From positions 10,247 to 74,246 of the forward strand of contig JBAZWO010000005.1 in NCBI GenBank assembly GCA_041660305.1: a stretch of DNA of 64,000 bases, in the 5' to 3' direction. This document shows, piece after piece, positions 3,203-39,298 of the stretch. Every line of letters begins with the position of its first letter. Position 1 is the stretch's first letter. The stretch is from Patescibacteria group bacterium. Lineage in GTDB: Bacteria > Patescibacteriota > Patescibacteriia > UBA9570. Below the pieces are notes generated by a model, which did no database searches, was not told the DNA's origin, and saw only the letters and a list, made by a program, of their open reading frames with translations. The position numbers were made by a program, and so were the translations under genes.

Positions 3203-3613
3203 ATGATGAATACTAAACAAACACAAGACAGCATTGATTATTGGCGCAAAACTGCAGAGCATGATTATGATACTATGTGCGTTTTGTTTAAAACTAAACG
3301 CTATTCAGATTGTTTGTTTTTTGGACATATTATTTTAGAAAAGATTCTTAAAGCTCATGTAGTAAAAACTACTGGTCAGCAACCGCCTTATATTCATAAT
3401 CTTACTAAATTACATGAAGTGGCCGAGCTTAATTTAAACGAAAAACAGCTGGATTTTTTAGATGCAGTAAACGATTTTAATATTAGGGCTCGTTATCCGG
3501 AGCATAAATTAAAATTTTATCAACAATGTACTCTAAAATACACCCAGCCTTATTTTAAAAAAATCACAGAGTTATATCATGAATTATGTCAAAAATTGAA
3601 GCCAAAAAAATAG
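3203..3613 (+). CDS. HEPN domain protein (toxin of a HEPN/MNT pair)
   Basis: All-helical 136 aa with an R-x4-H type motif in NIRARYPEH. Overlaps the cognate minimal nucleotidyltransferase gene. Confidence 0.75.
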   Translation: MMNTKQTQDSIDYWRKTAEHDYDTMCVLFKTKRYSDCLFFGHIILEKILKAHVVKTTGQQPPYIHNLTKLHEVAELNLNEKQLDFLDAVNDFNIRARYPEHKLKFYQQCTLKYTQPYFKKITELYHELCQKLKPKK

Positions 3614-3900
3614 TCATTCAATATGCTCAGGCATTGCAAGCAGCCGATTATTCTTTTAGTGCTATTTATTTATTTGGTTCGCAAGTTAAAGGCACGGCCA
3701 ACAGTTGGAGTGATATTGATGTAGCTGTAGTATCAAATCGTTTACAACGTAATTATGATGCTAATCGTTTTGCTTTATGGAAAATAAGGCGGCAAGTTAA
3801 TCTTAACATAGAACCGCATGGTTTTACGGTTAAAGATTTTGCCAATAATGCTAATCCTATGGCTTATGAGATTCGTAAAACTGGTATTAGAGTAGTGTAA
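3586..3900 (+). CDS. Minimal nucleotidyltransferase (MNT antitoxin)
   Basis: Pol-beta NTase signature YLFGSQVKGTANSWSDIDVAVV. 28-nt overlap with the HEPN gene. Confidence 0.8.
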   Translation: MSKIEAKKIVIQYAQALQAADYSFSAIYLFGSQVKGTANSWSDIDVAVVSNRLQRNYDANRFALWKIRRQVNLNIEPHGFTVKDFANNANPMAYEIRKTGIRVV

Positions 3901-7002: not shown

Positions 7003-8814
7003 ATGGAGGCGATGAACACGGCGGTAGAACAAATTAAACAGCGCTTGGATATTGTGGAATTACTCCAGGAATATTTGCGTTTAACAAAGGCGGGCACGAA
7101 CTGGAAGGCGAACTGCCCATTTCATCATGAAAAAACGCCTTCGTTTGTAGTAAGCCCCGATAAGCAAATTTGGCACTGTTTTGGCTGTGGTAAAGGGGGC
7201 GATGCGTTTACTTTTATTCAGGAAATGGAAGGAGTGGAATTTCCGGAAGCTTTGCGTTCACTAGCGCAACGCGCCAATATTACATTAGAGCAATACAAAC
7301 CAGAAGAACAAAATCATAAAACAGTATTATTGGATATTGTAAAACAAAGCCAGCTATTTTTTTCTAAAACGTTGCAGGAAGATTCGGCGGCTAAAATAGC
7401 GCGCGATTATTTACAGCAACGCGTTGTGTTACCGGCTACGCAGCAGCAATTTGGGCTAGGCTACAGTTTTAACGATTGGCGCAAATTATATCAGCACCTA
7501 CAACAAGTTGGTTATAAAGAAAATGATTTGGTAGCGGCCGGCCTGATTATTCAGGCGGAAGACAAACAATCGTACTACGATCGGTTCCGTGGCCGCTTAA
7601 TGTTTCCCATTTTCGATCATCATGGGGTAATGGTTGGTTTTACGGCACGGGTGCTAGAAGCGGATGCTACCGGCGGAAAATATGTTAATTCACCGCAATC
7701 TATTTTGTACGATAAATCTAGAATTATTTACGGTTTAAATTTTGCTAAGCAGATTATTAAAAAAGTAAACGCCACCATTGTAGTAGAGGGGAACATGGAT
7801 GTGATTACGGCGCATCAAGCGGGTTTTACGAACACGGTAGCCGTTTCTGGCACGGCATTTACCGAAGCACAAATTCAATTATTAAAACGCTATTCGCCTA
7901 ATTTGTTGCTAGCGTTCGATATGGATAAAGCCGGCTTGCAGGCGGCACAGCGTAGTATTGCCGTGGCGTTAAAATATGATATGAACGTAAAAGTAATTCA
8001 GTTGCCACCAGAATTTAAAGATCCAGATGAATGTATTAAAAAAGATCCGGCAATTTTTAGAACGGCCATTCGCGAAGCCAAGCATGTGCTTGATTTTTTC
8101 TTTGTCAGTATTACCAAACCATTAGATTTAACCCAAGCCGATCATAAAAAAAAGGCCGTGCAACAATTAATTCCGGTGTTGCGCATTATTAACGATCCGG
8201 TAGAGCGATCTCATTATGTGCAAAAGTTGGCTAATTTAGTGCAGGTAGATGAAACAATTATTCAAACTAAATTAAATACGGTAACAACAAAAAAACTAGC
8301 TAACACTAATTCAACAACAGCTAATACTATAGTGCCTGCCCAAGCGCTAGTTTTGCCAAAAAATCGTTCCGGCTTATTAGCCCAGCAAGTGCTAGCCATT
8401 ATTATTAGCCAGCCGGGCACTTGGGAATACGCCGTGCAATATTTACAGCCAGAATTTATTCAAGAGGCCAACTGGCAAGAGGTTTACAAACAAATGCTTA
8501 TTTATTATAATAACACCGGTGAATTTAATCTCACAGCTTATTTAACGGTTTATCCGCACCAGGCGGAGTTATTGCACTCCCTGGAGTTGTTGTATGCAGA
8601 TTTAACGGCTATTGCCGCGCCAGATGCAGTACAGCGAGAATTAATTCAAGGTATTAACGAGTTGCACAAACTAGATATTAAGCGGCGCTCACAACAGTTG
8701 GAGTGGCAATTAAAACAAGCCGAACAAGAACACGATACTGATTTGATTAATCAATTAATTAATACAGTTACTAATTTAAATAACGAACGTAGCCAGTTAT
8801 CTAAAGCACATTAG
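7003..8814 (+). CDS. dnaG: DNA primase DnaG
   Basis: CHC2 zinc finger CPFHHEKTPSFVVSPDKQIWHCFGCGKGGD and TOPRIM region VVEGNMDVI...FDMDKAG. Confidence 0.95.
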   Translation: MEAMNTAVEQIKQRLDIVELLQEYLRLTKAGTNWKANCPFHHEKTPSFVVSPDKQIWHCFGCGKGGDAFTFIQEMEGVEFPEALRSLAQRANITLEQYKPEEQNHKTVLLDIVKQSQLFFSKTLQEDSAAKIARDYLQQRVVLPATQQQFGLGYSFNDWRKLYQHLQQVGYKENDLVAAGLIIQAEDKQSYYDRFRGRLMFPIFDHHGVMVGFTARVLEADATGGKYVNSPQSILYDKSRIIYGLNFAKQIIKKVNATIVVEGNMDVITAHQAGFTNTVAVSGTAFTEAQIQLLKRYSPNLLLAFDMDKAGLQAAQRSIAVALKYDMNVKVIQLPPEFKDPDECIKKDPAIFRTAIREAKHVLDFFFVSITKPLDLTQADHKKKAVQQLIPVLRIINDPVERSHYVQKLANLVQVDETIIQTKLNTVTTKKLANTNSTTANTIVPAQALVLPKNRSGLLAQQVLAIIISQPGTWEYAVQYLQPEFIQEANWQEVYKQMLIYYNNTGEFNLTAYLTVYPHQAELLHSLELLYADLTAIAAPDAVQRELIQGINELHKLDIKRRSQQLEWQLKQAEQEHDTDLINQLINTVTNLNNERSQLSKAH

Positions 8815-33870: not shown

Positions 33871-34892
33871 TGACCGAGCAAGACGGTACACTTTCAAAAA
33901 TTACCGTTGGGTTAATAGCTATTGTAGCGTTAGCCGCAGTGTTGTTGCGTTGGTTGTATCCCATGAACCAGACAACTACTAATCTAGCGGCTACGCTTAC
34001 GCCACAACCTTTAACAGGTACCGTATTAACACCAGCTCATACCAATCAGTTAACGGCCGCATTTCAGCCAGCTTTATTATTAAGTGAACAAGCTACTGGT
34101 TTAGTGGTGCAAAACCAAGCTAATTTGGAATGGCGTGCTGCTAATCAGCCGGCGCAATCATTAGTGCAGCAACTGAATTTACCACAGCAGGTTATGCAGG
34201 CGCCTTGGTTATTTAGTAATGCCGAGCAACGTGTTGTAATATTACGGCGCCAAGCCGAGCAGCAACAATATTATCAAGTAATGATCTTTTCCAGCACCTG
34301 GCAGTCGCAACAGCAATTTAATTTACCAGCGGTAACACAACAACCAAGTCAGGTAGACATGGCGTTAATTAATAATAATTTATTAATTGCGGAACAAACC
34401 AATAACGCAATAACGTTAAGTAAAGTGAACCTGCAAGGTCAGTTGCAGAATCAGGTAATGATGAAAAAACAATTATTAAATTTAGGTCAGCTTATTAGAG
34501 TTATCAATAATGCCGATAGTTCAGTATTTGTTTTTTCACAGGTTAATAACCAGTTATTTATTACCAAAATTAATACAGATAATTTAGAGCAAGTATTACA
34601 AGTAAAGATTAAGTTGCCAGATAGCACCTTACAGATTACCGATATTACTAAACTGAATAATTATTTTGTCTGTTTAGCCCAACTAGCTAACACTCCCAAC
34701 AGCTGGATGTTATTACCATTCAGCACCGATTTCCAAAATTATTTTACACCTGTCTCGCTTAAACAAATTAACGCTTCTGCAACTACTCAACCACGCTTAT
34801 ACAGCGCCGCCAAAAGCTTAGCCGTTATTTACTCCGGTGCCGCGCCAACAGAGTATCATGTGGATACGTATTTGACAGAGAGTTTATTTTGA
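33870..34892 (+). CDS. Gln-rich membrane-anchored hypothetical protein
   Basis: One TM helix (ITVGLIAIVALAAVLL), Q-rich. Start overlaps the mscS stop. Confidence 0.45.
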   Translation: MTEQDGTLSKITVGLIAIVALAAVLLRWLYPMNQTTTNLAATLTPQPLTGTVLTPAHTNQLTAAFQPALLLSEQATGLVVQNQANLEWRAANQPAQSLVQQLNLPQQVMQAPWLFSNAEQRVVILRRQAEQQQYYQVMIFSSTWQSQQQFNLPAVTQQPSQVDMALINNNLLIAEQTNNAITLSKVNLQGQLQNQVMMKKQLLNLGQLIRVINNADSSVFVFSQVNNQLFITKINTDNLEQVLQVKIKLPDSTLQITDITKLNNYFVCLAQLANTPNSWMLLPFSTDFQNYFTPVSLKQINASATTQPRLYSAAKSLAVIYSGAAPTEYHVDTYLTESLF

Positions 34893-34956
34893 TATATTAT
34901 TATCTCAGATGGTAAGTCAGATGATCAATTAAGGATCGCTCGAATCCCGAGCAAAA

Positions 34957-34992
34957 AAATAAATGGCCAAATTATTGGTCATTTATTTTTTT
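34957..34992 (+). terminator. Intrinsic terminator
   Basis: AAATAAATGGCCAA-atta-TTGGTCATTTATTT (14 bp including one G-T pair) running into a T-run. Confidence 0.6.
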
Positions 34993-35006
34993 AAAAAATA
35001 AATATC

Positions 35007-35115
35007 CGTATCTAACAGGGTGGACACGAGGGGCGAAATCGGGCGGTCCCGACATCTGACTTACCATTTAGATGCTTGGGGTTCAACTCCCCTTCGCTCC
35101 ACCCTGTTAGATACG
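35007..35115. repeat. 18-bp perfect inverted repeat bracketing the tmRNA-like element
   Basis: CGTATCTAACAGGGTGGA (35007-35024) pairs with TCCACCCTGTTAGATACG (35098-35115). Confidence 0.9.
35030..35103 (+). ncRNA. tmRNA-like RNA with only the tRNA-like domain (mini-ssrA, or ssrA deletion remnant)
   Basis: The acceptor GGGGCGA/TCGCTCC includes a G3:U70 pair. GGTCCCGACA matches the GGAUUCGACN box at the tmRNA 5' end. T-arm GGGG-TTCAACT-CCCC, then discriminator A and CC. The middle is only a 7-bp stem with the 8-nt loop CTTACCAT. Confidence 0.5.
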
Positions 35116-35147
35116 CATGATAATAAATAAAATTAATTTATAATTTT

Positions 35148-35321: not shown

Positions 35322-35729
35322 ATGAAAGTATTTATTGATGCCGATGCTTTAATTGCTATTATGAAGCATGACGACATAAATCATGATAAGGCGTTCAAGT
35401 GTTTGGAAAAGTTAGTGCAGCAAGAGGTTATTTTTTTAACCTCTAATTATGTGTTTGCTGAAGTGGTTACAGTATTGAGTCAGCGCGTTAGCCAAGCTAG
35501 TGCTAAACAATTTATCAACATCATGCGTTCAACAGATTCACCTTTTATTGTTCGTTGGGTTGATGAAATTATAGCAGATGAAGCGGTGACTATTTTTGAA
35601 CAACAAACATCTAAAAATGTTAGTTTTGTAGATTGTGTAAATATGGCGTTGGTAAAAATAGACAACATTGATCAAATTTTTAGCTTTGATTCGGTGTATA
35701 AAAAAAATAAATTTGTGATGGTTGGATAA
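35322..35729 (+). CDS. PIN-domain ribonuclease (VapC-like toxin)
   Basis: MKVFIDADALIAI (first acidic residue), later FVDCVN acidic positions; 135 aa. Confidence 0.75.
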   Translation: MKVFIDADALIAIMKHDDINHDKAFKCLEKLVQQEVIFLTSNYVFAEVVTVLSQRVSQASAKQFINIMRSTDSPFIVRWVDEIIADEAVTIFEQQTSKNVSFVDCVNMALVKIDNIDQIFSFDSVYKKNKFVMVG

Positions 35730-35778
35730 CTGCGTTTCAACCACCGACAAATTGTCGATAATTGAAATTAGTCATGGT

Positions 35779-36643: not shown

Positions 36644-37477
36644 TTACTGGCTTATGGTTGTTTTCTTTGCCAGATAATTGGTTTTAGAAACTATAGGCCG
36701 TTTCAGTTCTTTTTCGAGAGCCTTTCTAGCATTACCGGCTACTCGGCCGCCTCTGTTGGCATCTTGTTTTAATTTTGGGACGCCTTTAGATTGTTCTTGA
36801 CGATGAATTTCAGTAGTAGATTTTTCTCCCAGCATGGTAAAAATCAATTCAAAATCATCCATATGATCTCGTAGATTTTCTCGTTTTAGGCTTTTAAGTT
36901 TTTTATATTCATTTGGTGTTACGCCAAACGTAGCTTTAGATATTTCAGCGGTCAAAATTTCATAATCTTTTTCTTCTTGAGCACCTCGTTGTTGCCATTC
37001 ATTCGTTAATTCTTCACGAATCGCAATGCCGCGTATTCTTTTTTCTATCCAAGCATCGCTATAGCCTTTGGCTTTATATAAAGCCCGGGTACGTTTAGTA
37101 GATAATTCAGGATCTTCTATTTCCTGTACTCGTTCATAACCAACTTTGGCTAGCCAGCGTTTAAATGGTTCCGCTTTTGGAGAAGGAATGGATTGAATAA
37201 TTCGAAAAATACCTTCGGTATTGGCACAATCGGTTAAATATTTTTTACCATCTAAACTAACTAATTTCAGTTGTCGACAAATTGTCGATAACTGAATTTT
37301 TTCCTCTTCATTTACTCGAATTTTCATTTTATACCAATAATCATTAGCATTTATACTGTTTGTTAGTGCTTCAATCACATCTACTACCGAAAACCACCAT
37401 TCGTTCTGAAATAGGGTTTTACGGATAGTTTTGCCTTTAAATATGGCAAGATGTGTAACTTGGCTAATATTAGGCAT
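36644..37477 (-). CDS. Bro-N-domain (phage antirepressor-like) DNA-binding protein
   Basis: N-terminal FKGKTIRKTLFQNEWWFSVVDVIEALT. C-terminal WIEKRIRGIAIREELTNEW...ENLRDHMDDFELIF pattern, common in BRO-family proteins. Confidence 0.6.
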   Translation of the reverse strand: MPNISQVTHLAIFKGKTIRKTLFQNEWWFSVVDVIEALTNSINANDYWYKMKIRVNEEEKIQLSTICRQLKLVSLDGKKYLTDCANTEGIFRIIQSIPSPKAEPFKRWLAKVGYERVQEIEDPELSTKRTRALYKAKGYSDAWIEKRIRGIAIREELTNEWQQRGAQEEKDYEILTAEISKATFGVTPNEYKKLKSLKRENLRDHMDDFELIFTMLGEKSTTEIHRQEQSKGVPKLKQDANRGGRVAGNARKALEKELKRPIVSKTNYLAKKTTISQ

Positions 37478-37902: not shown

Positions 37903-38030
37903 GAACTAAGGAGTCATTCTAGGAGTGGTATTCTGATTAATTAAGTAAAGGGAGCGTAAGTTGCAAATTAACTTCAAATTTTGTAAATATGCTTAGTAAG
38001 TTGAACGCTTTTATAGTATGGCTAATATAT

Positions 38031-38095
38031 CAAAAATAATCAATCATTTCACGGTACTCTAGATATTAACCCCCGGGTTTATCCCGGTGGGTTAA
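38031..38095. repeat. 65-bp direct repeat, left copy (includes an AACCCCCGGG hairpin)
   Basis: caaaaataatcaatcatttcacggtactctagatattaacccccgggtttatcccggtgggtta differs at 3 positions from 39234-39298. A second partial hairpin lies at 38117-38140. Confidence 0.9.
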
Positions 38096-38156
38096 TTAAG
38101 GCAACTATTAGACAAAGGCAGGTTTATGCCGGTGGGTTAAATAAGGTAGTTATTGA

Positions 38157-39180: not shown

Positions 39181-39233
39181 AATATAAAATTAAAAATAAA
39201 TTATATATCACGCTTTTATTATCCCTAATCCAC

Positions 39234-39298
39234 CAAAAATAATCAATCATTTTACAGTATTCTAGATATTAACCCCCGGGTTTATCCCGGTGGGTTAT
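39234..39298. repeat. 65-bp direct repeat, right copy
   Basis: caaaaataatcaatcattttacagtattctagatattaacccccgggtttatcccggtgggtta. Confidence 0.9.

Follow-up and report, generated by a model that had tools for sequence, protein, structure and literature searches.

What is the short tRNA-shaped unit, bracketed by a perfect inverted repeat, that lies in a 64-kb stretch of DNA from a Patescibacteria group bacterium (contig JBAZWO010000005.1; the whole stretch is called the window below)? An earlier interpretation made from the letters of the window (the sequence-only reading) had offered three options: a natural minimal tmRNA, a deletion scar of ssrA at an island integration site, or a tRNA-like regulator or decoy, chargeable with alanine (Ala) and carrying a quadruplet-type loop. 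The third is closest to the evidence presented here, but it missed a neighbouring gene for an antisense small RNA (sRNA). We propose that two small RNA genes lie side by side within 34872-35115, that each is probably transcribed from its own promoter, and that the two function together. Our preferred interpretation, to which we assign a probability of about 0.45, is that the pair may constitute an RNA-only toxin-antitoxin-like module, in which an Ala-chargeable tRNA with an 8-nt loop would be masked by the antisense sRNA.

The features on which the sequence-only reading was built are real: the 74-nt unit with its 7-bp stem and 8-nt loop CUUACCAU, the perfect 18-bp inverted repeat (IR), the perfect 15-nt reverse complement, the G3:U70 pair and the T loop UUCAACU can all be read directly from the sequence (coordinates in Table 1). 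By chance 0.05 matches would be expected for the IR and 0.04 for the 15-nt complement. Two details needed correction. The T-loop-like fragment TCGAATCCCGAG is present, but at 34940-34951 and not at 34937-34948, and the 3' end does contain ACC but reads ACC-C, with CCA not fully encoded. The fold is more stable than that of shuffled sequence, with z-scores of -3.9 (core) and -9.6 (entire region).

Homologues were collected in one scan of a genome collection with an exact T-arm/acceptor pattern, which returned 118 loci. Ordinary tRNA-Ala genes account for most of these and the 3' ends of genuine tmRNAs for some, while a distinct subset comprises clear homologues of the window RNA, forming a family of at least 14 copies that is found mostly in Magasanikbacteria. 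The family loci carry the labels Magasanikbacteria (L066, L086, L090, L134 and L145), 'Patescibacteria group' (L068 and L131), unclassified 'bacterium' (L097) and, for a more distant member, Peribacteria (L060). Two further loci (L073 and L167) are labelled 'uncultured Gammaproteobacteria'; their RNAs are near-identical to the Magasanikbacteria ones, and they may represent mislabelled bins or transfer between phyla. L097 and L134 each hold two diverged paralogous copies. The second and diverged copy in L134 (L134b), revealed by our family covariance model R1, keeps G3:U70 and shows compensatory changes at 4:69 and 5:68.

The fold was derived with RNAalifold and explicit pair counting on 12 sequences, using 500 shuffles and slid alignments as controls. 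It is a cloverleaf. The acceptor stem has 8 bp, and the D stem has 5 bp (5-6 bp across the copies) and is capped by a YGGY tetraloop; the anticodon-like stem has 7 bp and closes an 8-nt loop of consensus NUURYCAN. A variable region of 3-4 nt follows, and then the T stem of 4 bp with the loop UUCAACU. Across the alignment 95.4% of cells are paired and 13 pairs have changes on both sides, including all five pairs of the D stem and all seven of the anticodon-like stem; no shuffle reached the observed pairing and compensation (0/500), and the slid controls were 52-57% paired. The eighth acceptor pair also covaries, being G-C in 11 sequences and A-U in the window. The elbow is canonical, with GG in the D loop and UUCAACU in the T loop, and the end is of the alanine type (G3:U70 and A73), as it is in 13 of the 14 family copies. 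Model R1 scores the family at 72-102 bits and ordinary tRNA-Ala at no more than 45 bits.

Conservation is unevenly distributed over this structure: the acceptor/T half is nearly invariant, and the D and anticodon arms are variable. The loop retains invariants resembling those of an anticodon loop (U in the place of U33, and CA on the 3' side), while the four-base 'anticodon' differs even among close relatives (UACC, UAUC, UGCC, CGUC) against a constant Ala identity. Every copy has its own -10-like element, and in most an intrinsic terminator follows immediately after the encoded CCA. The leader motif GGTGG, whose transcript GGUGG is complementary to the 3' CCACC, precedes 10/10 family copies but only 3/80 ordinary tRNA-sized genes with the same 3' end. 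The family-wide occurrence of this leader argues that the 18-bp IR of the window is an enlarged form of a family trait, the pairing of leader and 3' end. The sequence-only reading had taken the IR for a lock on the unit; the repeat is indeed there, but as an exaggerated version of what the whole family has.

Standard tools see little of such genes. At the locus ARAGORN with default settings and Rfam at its gathering thresholds called nothing, and RF00005 at gathering had no match in the window or in 10 family loci. When thresholds were lowered to 90%, ARAGORN reported a 74-nt 'tRNA-?' with the 4-base anticodon 'tacc'. In relaxed Rfam searches Tymo_tRNA-like scored 30.9 bits, and tRNA-Sec, the highest-scoring model of the tRNA clan, 28.2 bits. 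The tRNA-Sec model reaches 35-38 bits in L097, against a bar of 47 bits, with neither a UCA anticodon nor a variable arm. One L097 copy (L097a) just reaches the threshold of the Tymovirus tRNA-like structure (40.7 bits), a score that reflects general tRNA-likeness only. These RNAs differ from canonical tRNAs in having an acceptor/T branch split 8/4 rather than 7/5, an anticodon stem of 7 bp rather than 5 and a loop of 8 nt rather than 7, and the usual annotation pipelines for tRNA and tmRNA miss them or give them a wrong label.

The same searches bear on the first option, a natural tmRNA pared down to its tRNA-like domain (TLD) and acting with SmpB. The likeness is real: the acceptor end is of the Ala type (G3:U70, A73), and the RNA is small and has no reading frame, the stretch between the 7-nt acceptor 5' strand and the T stem being just 41 nt long, much as in the TLD-only mitochondrial ssrA of jakobids. 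Some genuine tmRNAs, among them examples from Colwelliaceae, also have exactly this T arm, GGGGUUCAACUCCCC, and the ...GCUCCACC end. Furthermore, tmRNA genes are classic insertion sites of islands, and an accessory region begins at this locus. The same T arm and 3' end, however, also occur in ordinary tRNA-Ala genes. The TLD of a tmRNA has no D stem and no anticodon arm, and SmpB fills that space; in our family the space is filled by a D stem-loop and an anticodon-like arm, both backed by covariation. The RNA also fails the tmRNA detectors. ARAGORN made tmRNA calls only at 70% thresholds, with nonsense tags at junk level, and the relaxed Rfam search (E <= 10) listed no tmRNA, alpha-, beta- or cyano-tmRNA or mt-tmRNA, one lower-scoring same-clan match being possibly a weak tmRNA match. 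The checks by ARAGORN and covariance models that had been proposed for the locus were silent at default or gathering settings and, when relaxed, returned tRNA-like matches. A tmRNA is a single essential copy working with SmpB; the two diverged copies in each of L097 and L134 would be unusual for one, as would the antisense partner described below. Finally, smpB occurs within none of the module loci, but adjoins all 11 gammaproteobacterial tmRNAs recovered by the same scan. We consider a minimal tmRNA very improbable.

The second gene of the pair lies upstream. The 15-nt complement and the T-loop-like fragment had been listed as lying around the tRNA-like unit; both belong to a separate conserved sRNA gene, the one as its seed and the other within an internal hairpin. 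The predicted sRNA consists of a free, unstructured 5' seed, internal hairpins and a terminator, and is 67-88 nt long across loci, that of the window (~88 nt) being the longest. At the other loci a TTGACA-N17-TATAAT-like promoter stands 5-9 nt before the antisense box; beyond the box come a small hairpin, a CACGAAC... segment that is conserved and single-stranded, and the terminator. This scaffold is homologous across loci, with seven compensatory pairs (alignments A4/A5). In the window, the hairpin GCUCGAAUCCCGAGC is an imperfect antisense image of the partner's acceptor 5' strand and D arm, in which C-to-U changes preserve G·U pairing. The sRNA alignments hold no conserved reading frame or stop codon, which speaks against a variant of the tmRNA interpretation in which the sRNA would be the detached mRNA-like piece; on these grounds we rejected a split tmRNA. 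We also rejected a C/D-box guide RNA, having seen no C or D boxes in the sRNA alignment by eye, with no search tool run.

Two further resemblances between the partners were observed. The conserved single-stranded CGAAC/CGAAU of the sRNAs (L066-L167; 34940-34945 in the window) is complementary to the partner's T-loop GUUC, and at the majority of loci the sRNA terminator has the 5' strand AACUCCC, identical to the 3' half of the partner's T arm. Either the two RNAs touch at a second site here, or the resemblance may go back to a shared origin.

The link between the two genes is the antisense box itself. At the family loci a box of 9-18 nt is exactly antisense to the loop and stem 5' strand of the locus's own anticodon-like arm (in L073, over 15 nt with one G·U). 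It lies ~90-150 nt upstream on the same strand, except in L090, where the sRNA gene is downstream of the tRNA-like gene, and in L060, where it is divergent on the opposite strand; in L060 the two segments form a direct DNA repeat, and the transcripts are still antisense over 21 nt. The target covers ~20-25 nt of the tRNA-like RNA, running from the loop through the stem 5' strand into the D arm. In the window the perfect pairing widens to about 34905-34927 once G·U pairs are allowed, and in the cofolded structure the sRNA mirrors, imperfectly and in antisense, the entire 5' half of the tRNA-like RNA.

To compare cognate with non-cognate pairings we computed duplex energies for the first 30 nt of each sRNA against each tRNA-like RNA. 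Cognate duplexes range from -25.6 to -35.2 kcal/mol (mean -31.6), against a non-cognate mean of -15.6 (standard deviation 3.8). Each cognate pair ranks first in its own row and its own column, including that of the window (-28.3 kcal/mol), and none of 20,000 permutations reached the observed total. The two modules of L097 are orthogonal to each other, as are those of L134. Once the cost of unfolding both RNAs has been counted, the net gain predicted by cofolding is -2 to -19 kcal/mol. The duplexes contain 213 Watson-Crick pairs and 23 G·U pairs but only 2 A·C mismatches, an asymmetry that argues for selection on pairing between transcripts and not on a DNA repeat. As judged from these comparisons, the antisense pairing is locus-specific and co-evolving and acts at the RNA level.

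A possible objection is that we are describing a feature of the DNA: an ssrA or tRNA deletion scar, an attachment site (att) remnant, a miniature inverted-repeat transposable element (MITE), an invertible segment or an integron attC. The perfect 18-bp IR and the 15-bp inverted match invite this idea, as does the position of the locus at a synteny break, and the IR arms include ATCTAAC and GTTAGAT, which match the attC cores RYYYAAC and GTTRRRY (read from the sequence). An attC site is an imperfect hairpin that contains extrahelical bases and carries the R'' and R' cores at its foot, and such sites form cassette arrays next to intI. Here the stem is perfect and has no extrahelical bases, there is neither an array nor a second copy, the ORFs annotated between 372 and 54975 include no integrase or invertase, and the other family members lack attC-like cores; we therefore rejected attC. 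A MITE or other dispersed repeat, which would occur in several genomic copies bordered by terminal inverted repeats, was rejected because the IR and the unit are each present in a single copy in the window and the homologues have no long IR, and an inverton because of the 23:2 pairing asymmetry and the arrangement in L060, where a direct DNA repeat still yields antisense transcripts. The deletion scar or att remnant offered as the second option of the sequence-only reading is refuted by the conserved family at 72-102 bits, by the 13 compensatory pairs spread through the fold and by the copies' own -10 elements and, in most, terminators. A feature of the DNA itself thus seems to us scarcely credible.

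Table 1. Positions in the window of the two RNA genes and their parts
Feature	Position	Strand	Basis
sRNA promoter, TTGACA (34872-34877), 17-nt spacer, TATTAT (34895-34900)	34872-34900	+	11/12 consensus matches
Antisense sRNA gene	~34905-34992	+	ends inferred from promoter and terminator; homologous to the sRNAs of other loci
Antisense box, perfect 15-nt complement of the anticodon-like stem 5' strand and loop	34909-34923	+	target 35053-35067
sRNA hairpin GCUCGAAUCCCGAGC	34938-34952	+	cofold structure; aligns with the CACGAAYYCUCGAG region of other sRNAs
sRNA terminator, 18-bp A/U-rich hairpin and U run	34953-34992	+	inverted repeat, 94% complementary
Putative -10 element TAAATAT of the tRNA-like gene	34999-35005	+	inferred; columns T19/A20/A22/T24 conserved, alignment A2
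IR 5' arm, the transcript leader, ending in family-conserved GGUGGA (35019-35024)	35007-35024	+	
tRNA-like RNA (74 nt)	35030-35103	+	ARAGORN at 90%, covariation, model R1 90.3 bits
Acceptor stem, 8 bp, G3:U70	35030-37 with 35093-100	+	alignment pair counts
D stem, 5 bp, loop CGGU	35039-43 with 35048-52	+	alignment pair counts
Anticodon-like stem, 7 bp	35053-59 with 35068-74	+	alignment pair counts
8-nt loop CUUACCAU	35060-67	+	read from sequence
T stem, 4 bp, loop UUCAACU	35078-81 with 35089-92	+	alignment pair counts
A73; CC; C in place of A76	35101; 35102-03	+	read from sequence
IR 3' arm, last 3 nt of the acceptor 3' strand and ACC, then trailer	35098-35115	+	

How might such a pair work? 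We suggest that the tRNA-like RNA would be a stable effector and the sRNA a strongly promoted 'anti-tRNA'. In the window, the 18-bp leader-trailer helix would have to be cleaved, for example by RNase III, before other maturation; the tRNA-like RNA would then be matured by RNase P and the CCA-adding enzyme and charged by alanyl-tRNA synthetase (AlaRS), reading the acceptor end alone. On the ribosome the 8-nt loop could cause harmful +1 frameshifting or Ala misincorporation. The sRNA, presumably abundant, would nucleate on the 8-nt loop and unzip the anticodon and D arms into a long duplex, which would inactivate the tRNA-like RNA and probably mark it for degradation. Pairing of the leader with CCACC may be an additional lock on the precursor, extended in the window into an 18-bp processing stalk.

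Several observations are consistent with this toxin-antitoxin-like interpretation. First, AlaRS reads G3:U70 in the acceptor helix, and the AlaRS identity set together with a canonical elbow in the near-invariant acceptor/T half leads us to expect maturation and alanylation. The anticodon loop is ignored by AlaRS (PMC9094753). Second, the sRNA targets only the D and anticodon arms, that is, decoding and not charging, which suggests that the controlled activity is on the ribosome. Third, the four-base anticodon varies while the Ala identity is fixed, which makes a conserved decoding assignment unlikely; generic harm by +1 frameshifting or misincorporation appears to fit better. Fourth, toxicity has precedents: inserting one base into the anticodon of an E. 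coli tRNA-Ala scaffold yields an RNA that 'effectively halts bacterial growth' (PMC9094753), and allo-tRNAs with mismatched identity arrest the growth of E. coli, the genes for such RNAs lying near toxin-antitoxin loci (PMC5389517). Fifth, the module has traits of toxin-antitoxin systems, with orthogonal double modules, no conserved protein neighbour, an empty syntenic site in three relatives and a position at the edge of an accessory region, along with a PIN gene in the window and an AbiEii gene in L167. More tentatively, and with doubt outweighing confidence, we suggest that this could be the first RNA-only toxin-antitoxin (addiction or abortive-infection) system to use an aminoacylatable tRNA as the toxin and an anti-tRNA sRNA that unzips its L-shape, widespread in one Patescibacteria class.

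Other observations weigh against a toxin-antitoxin-like module. For the window copy the predicted energy is -60 kcal/mol when the IR closes the precursor and -31 kcal/mol when the flanks are free around the cloverleaf, and with this difference of ~29 kcal/mol the window copy may be poorly matured or silenced; it is also alone in the family in lacking both an encoded A76 and a terminator. The copy L097b (L097 1360-1448, GGAGCGAG...) has A3:U70 and would lose its Ala identity, even though it retains its own cognate sRNA. The 7-bp stem, as compared with the canonical 5, may not suit normal A-site decoding, and the near-invariant acceptor/T domain would fit a housekeeping role equally well. Finally, the organisms are uncultured, and the census of ~14 copies comes from a single exact-pattern scan.

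The main rival explanation is that the RNA is a riboregulated, non-toxic tRNA for a special purpose, either programmed recoding (+1 or quadruplet) or the donation of alanine to a non-ribosomal acceptor such as a cell-wall cross-bridge or lipid, with the sRNA tuning its availability. The fold, the conserved G3:U70, A73 and CCA and the invariant acceptor/T domain would all fit, the loop invariants (U at the U33 position and 3' CA) are anticodon-like, and some copies sit among housekeeping genes (groES, enolase, rpsL, dinB). On the other hand, with anticodons as different as UACC, UAUC, UGCC and CGUC no single decoding assignment is conserved, and a purely acceptor-end donor would not be stopped by blocking its anticodon arm. 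Nor is there a conserved Fem/MprF-type gene or other protein neighbour, and tandem orthogonal paralogues with patchy, non-syntenic placement would be unusual for a housekeeping adaptor. We regard this explanation as rather unlikely, but as the one most to be reckoned with.

The roles could also be reversed, with the sRNA as an effector on other targets and the tRNA-like RNA as its sponge, or with the tRNA-like RNA as a decoy for tRNA-targeting nucleases (PIN/VapC). tRNA-derived sponges of sRNAs are established in enterobacteria (3'ETS-leuZ), both RNAs here have strong and specific complementarity, and a PIN gene starts ~220 nt downstream in the window. However, the seed varies freely between loci and tracks its own neighbour only, where other targets would constrain it, and the sRNA seed of the window has no second match within the 64 kb. 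PIN genes are not conserved neighbours, and a pure sponge would leave the conservation of G3:U70, A73 and CCA unexplained. We hold a reversal of roles to be distinctly unlikely.

How does the proposed toxin-antitoxin-like pair compare with known systems? Allo-tRNAs, the 8/4 and 9/3 tRNAs of Mukai et al. 2017 (PMC5389517), share with it the 8/4 division of a 12-bp acceptor branch and a D arm like that of tRNA-Sec, whose long stem ends in a tetraloop. Further common traits are an anticodon stem of more than the usual length, G3:U70 (in a subset of allo-tRNAs, which is charged with Ala) and highly variable anticodons, including UAU and GUC. They are toxic when expressed, often lie near toxin-antitoxin loci, and some are suspected to have non-translational functions (PMC5389517). 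They differ in that our RNA has no long variable arm (3-4 nt), an 8-nt loop in place of their 7-nt loop, the discriminator A73 and a tRNA-Ala-like acceptor/T sequence. Allo-tRNAs have been reported for Clostridia, Proteobacteria and Acidobacteria, whereas the module is in Patescibacteria and adds a GGUGG leader and an antisense sRNA gene, the latter unreported for allo-tRNAs in that study (PMC5389517).

Frameshift-suppressor and quadruplet tRNAs (sufD, sufB2 and qtRNAs; PMC9094753) likewise have a loop enlarged to 8 nt by one base and, on an Ala scaffold, charging that is independent of the loop; the Ala qtRNA is severely growth-inhibitory in E. coli (PMC9094753). Those RNAs, however, are mutants or engineered forms of canonical 7/5 tRNAs, while ours is a natural family with a remodelled body and a partner RNA.

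In its arrangement the module recalls type I and type VIII toxin-antitoxin systems (hok/sok; SdsR/RyeA, CreT/CreA), with an effector RNA next to a strongly promoted antisense gene, extended specific complementarity, orthogonal paralogues in one genome and accessory, patchy placement; the pairing of the precursor's 5' and 3' ends recalls the inactive folded form of hok mRNA. In contrast to type I systems the target is no mRNA and encodes no peptide, being a 74-nt cloverleaf without an ORF; the antisense gene does not overlap it in cis; and unlike CreTA there is no CRISPR effector in the module. For the proposed toxicity of the effector, the precedents are the engineered Ala qtRNAs and the allo-tRNAs (PMC9094753, PMC5389517). 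The module thus fails at least one defining feature of each of these groups, allo-tRNAs, quadruplet tRNAs and antisense toxin-antitoxin systems.

In Rfam 15 and the literature searched we found no description of a tRNA-like RNA combined with an antisense sRNA and, in that literature, no tRNA-like toxin with an RNA antitoxin, no tRNA-like RNA of Patescibacteria and no natural quadruplet tRNA that matches the module. If the pairing is functional, the module would place a tRNA-shaped RNA under direct antisense control, a mode that we did not find in these sources, and would be the first natural 8-nt-loop tRNA family kept by selection, as opposed to suppressor mutants, with a bearing on how cells tolerate or use quadruplet and +1 decoding. 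The 12 natural pairs, mutually orthogonal in silico, would offer ready tRNA/anti-tRNA switches for synthetic biology. It would also mean that the reduced genomes of Patescibacteria carry RNA-only accessory modules, invisible to protein-centred searches for defence and toxin-antitoxin systems.

Turning to the genomic setting, the G+C content falls from ~0.41 to ~0.32 at the locus. The upstream neighbour is a 340-aa ORF whose 3' end and stop codon overlap the sRNA promoter; a search for homologues with its protein recovered only itself. Downstream follow a 56-aa ORF, the PIN gene (35322-35729), nucleotidyltransferase-like, Bro-N, NYN and CMD genes, with a cluster of glycosyltransferase genes beyond them. 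By TopA the nearest relatives are Candidatus Kerfeldbacteria. Three relatives have the homologue of the 340-aa gene facing mfd, the two convergent genes abutting with no module in between, and model R1 finds no tRNA-like RNA in these syntenic loci. These empty sites, the drop in G+C and the accessory genes together place the module at a synteny break, at the edge of low-GC accessory DNA. The comparative synteny proposed in the sequence-only reading as a check for an integration site revealed a break and an empty site in three relatives. Neither an integrase nor smpB was found among the annotated ORFs (372-54975).

A scan for consensus promoters made no call at the putative -10 element of the tRNA-like gene. 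Immediately after the IR 3' arm, and before the 56-aa ORF/PIN operon, we noted the promoter-like sequence ATGATA-16-TATAAT (35117-35144; 10/12 positions). Read-through from the tRNA-like gene into this operon is also possible, because in the window that gene has no terminator.

Among the family loci, an all-against-all BLAST of flanking ORFs from 11 loci found no conserved protein neighbour, and Pfam assigned the neighbours to unrelated housekeeping and accessory families, such as the AbiEii toxin gene near the module in L167. In the Magasanikbacteria metagenome-assembled genome of L090 an adenosylcobalamin riboswitch (7072-7222, 53.7 bits), adjoining a DUF4430 gene, lies ~200 nt from the module. 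Searches of phages, plasmids and viral contigs for the module gave nothing relevant, and the D-arm pattern GGGGCN6GGGN4CCC...GGTTCRANTCC, run over viral and JGI metagenome contigs, a collection that does not include the contig of the window, gave only unrelated matches.

At eight further loci from the scan (L074, L093, L106, L109, L120, L133, L140 and L153), in metagenome-assembled genomes labelled Dehalococcoidia, Proteobacteria, Syntrophales, Nitrospirales, Verrucomicrobia and Mycobacteriales, we noted short tRNA-like genes that are also non-canonical and share the Ala-type acceptor/T end. All were missed by ARAGORN, R1 scores them at 36-51 bits, and the loops of several correspond to stop-codon anticodons (CUUCACA, CUCUACA, CUUUACA). 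No antisense partner is obvious at these loci, save for an 11-nt match 513 nt downstream in L133. A recurrent element of ~90 nt, GCGTTACC..GGGGC.GTC.AGGGTGAACCCAGC..GCAGGCACGTAGT.GC...GGTTCAAATCC.GCC, occurs in viral and metagenome contigs (L009-L011, L013, L032, L033, L039, L040, L042, L046-L048 and L055), sometimes beside tRNA genes; it resembles a conserved structured RNA and is unrelated to the tRNA-like module.

Elsewhere in the window, 3203-3900 contains a gene pair encoding HEPN and minimal-nucleotidyltransferase proteins, in an arrangement like that of type II/VII toxin-antitoxin systems; with the PIN gene this gives several toxin-type modules in one small genome. An 84-nt direct repeat (38011-38094 and 39214-39297, 88% identical, with a partial copy at 38121-38154) holds the palindrome TAACCCCCGGGTTTATCCCGGTGGGTTA in both copies, and the NYN and CMD genes lie between them. 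A 37-nt inverted pair (35736-35772 and 37260-37296, 81% complementary), with the palindrome CGACAAATTGTCG at its centre, encloses the nucleotidyltransferase-like and Bro-N genes and resembles operator sites.

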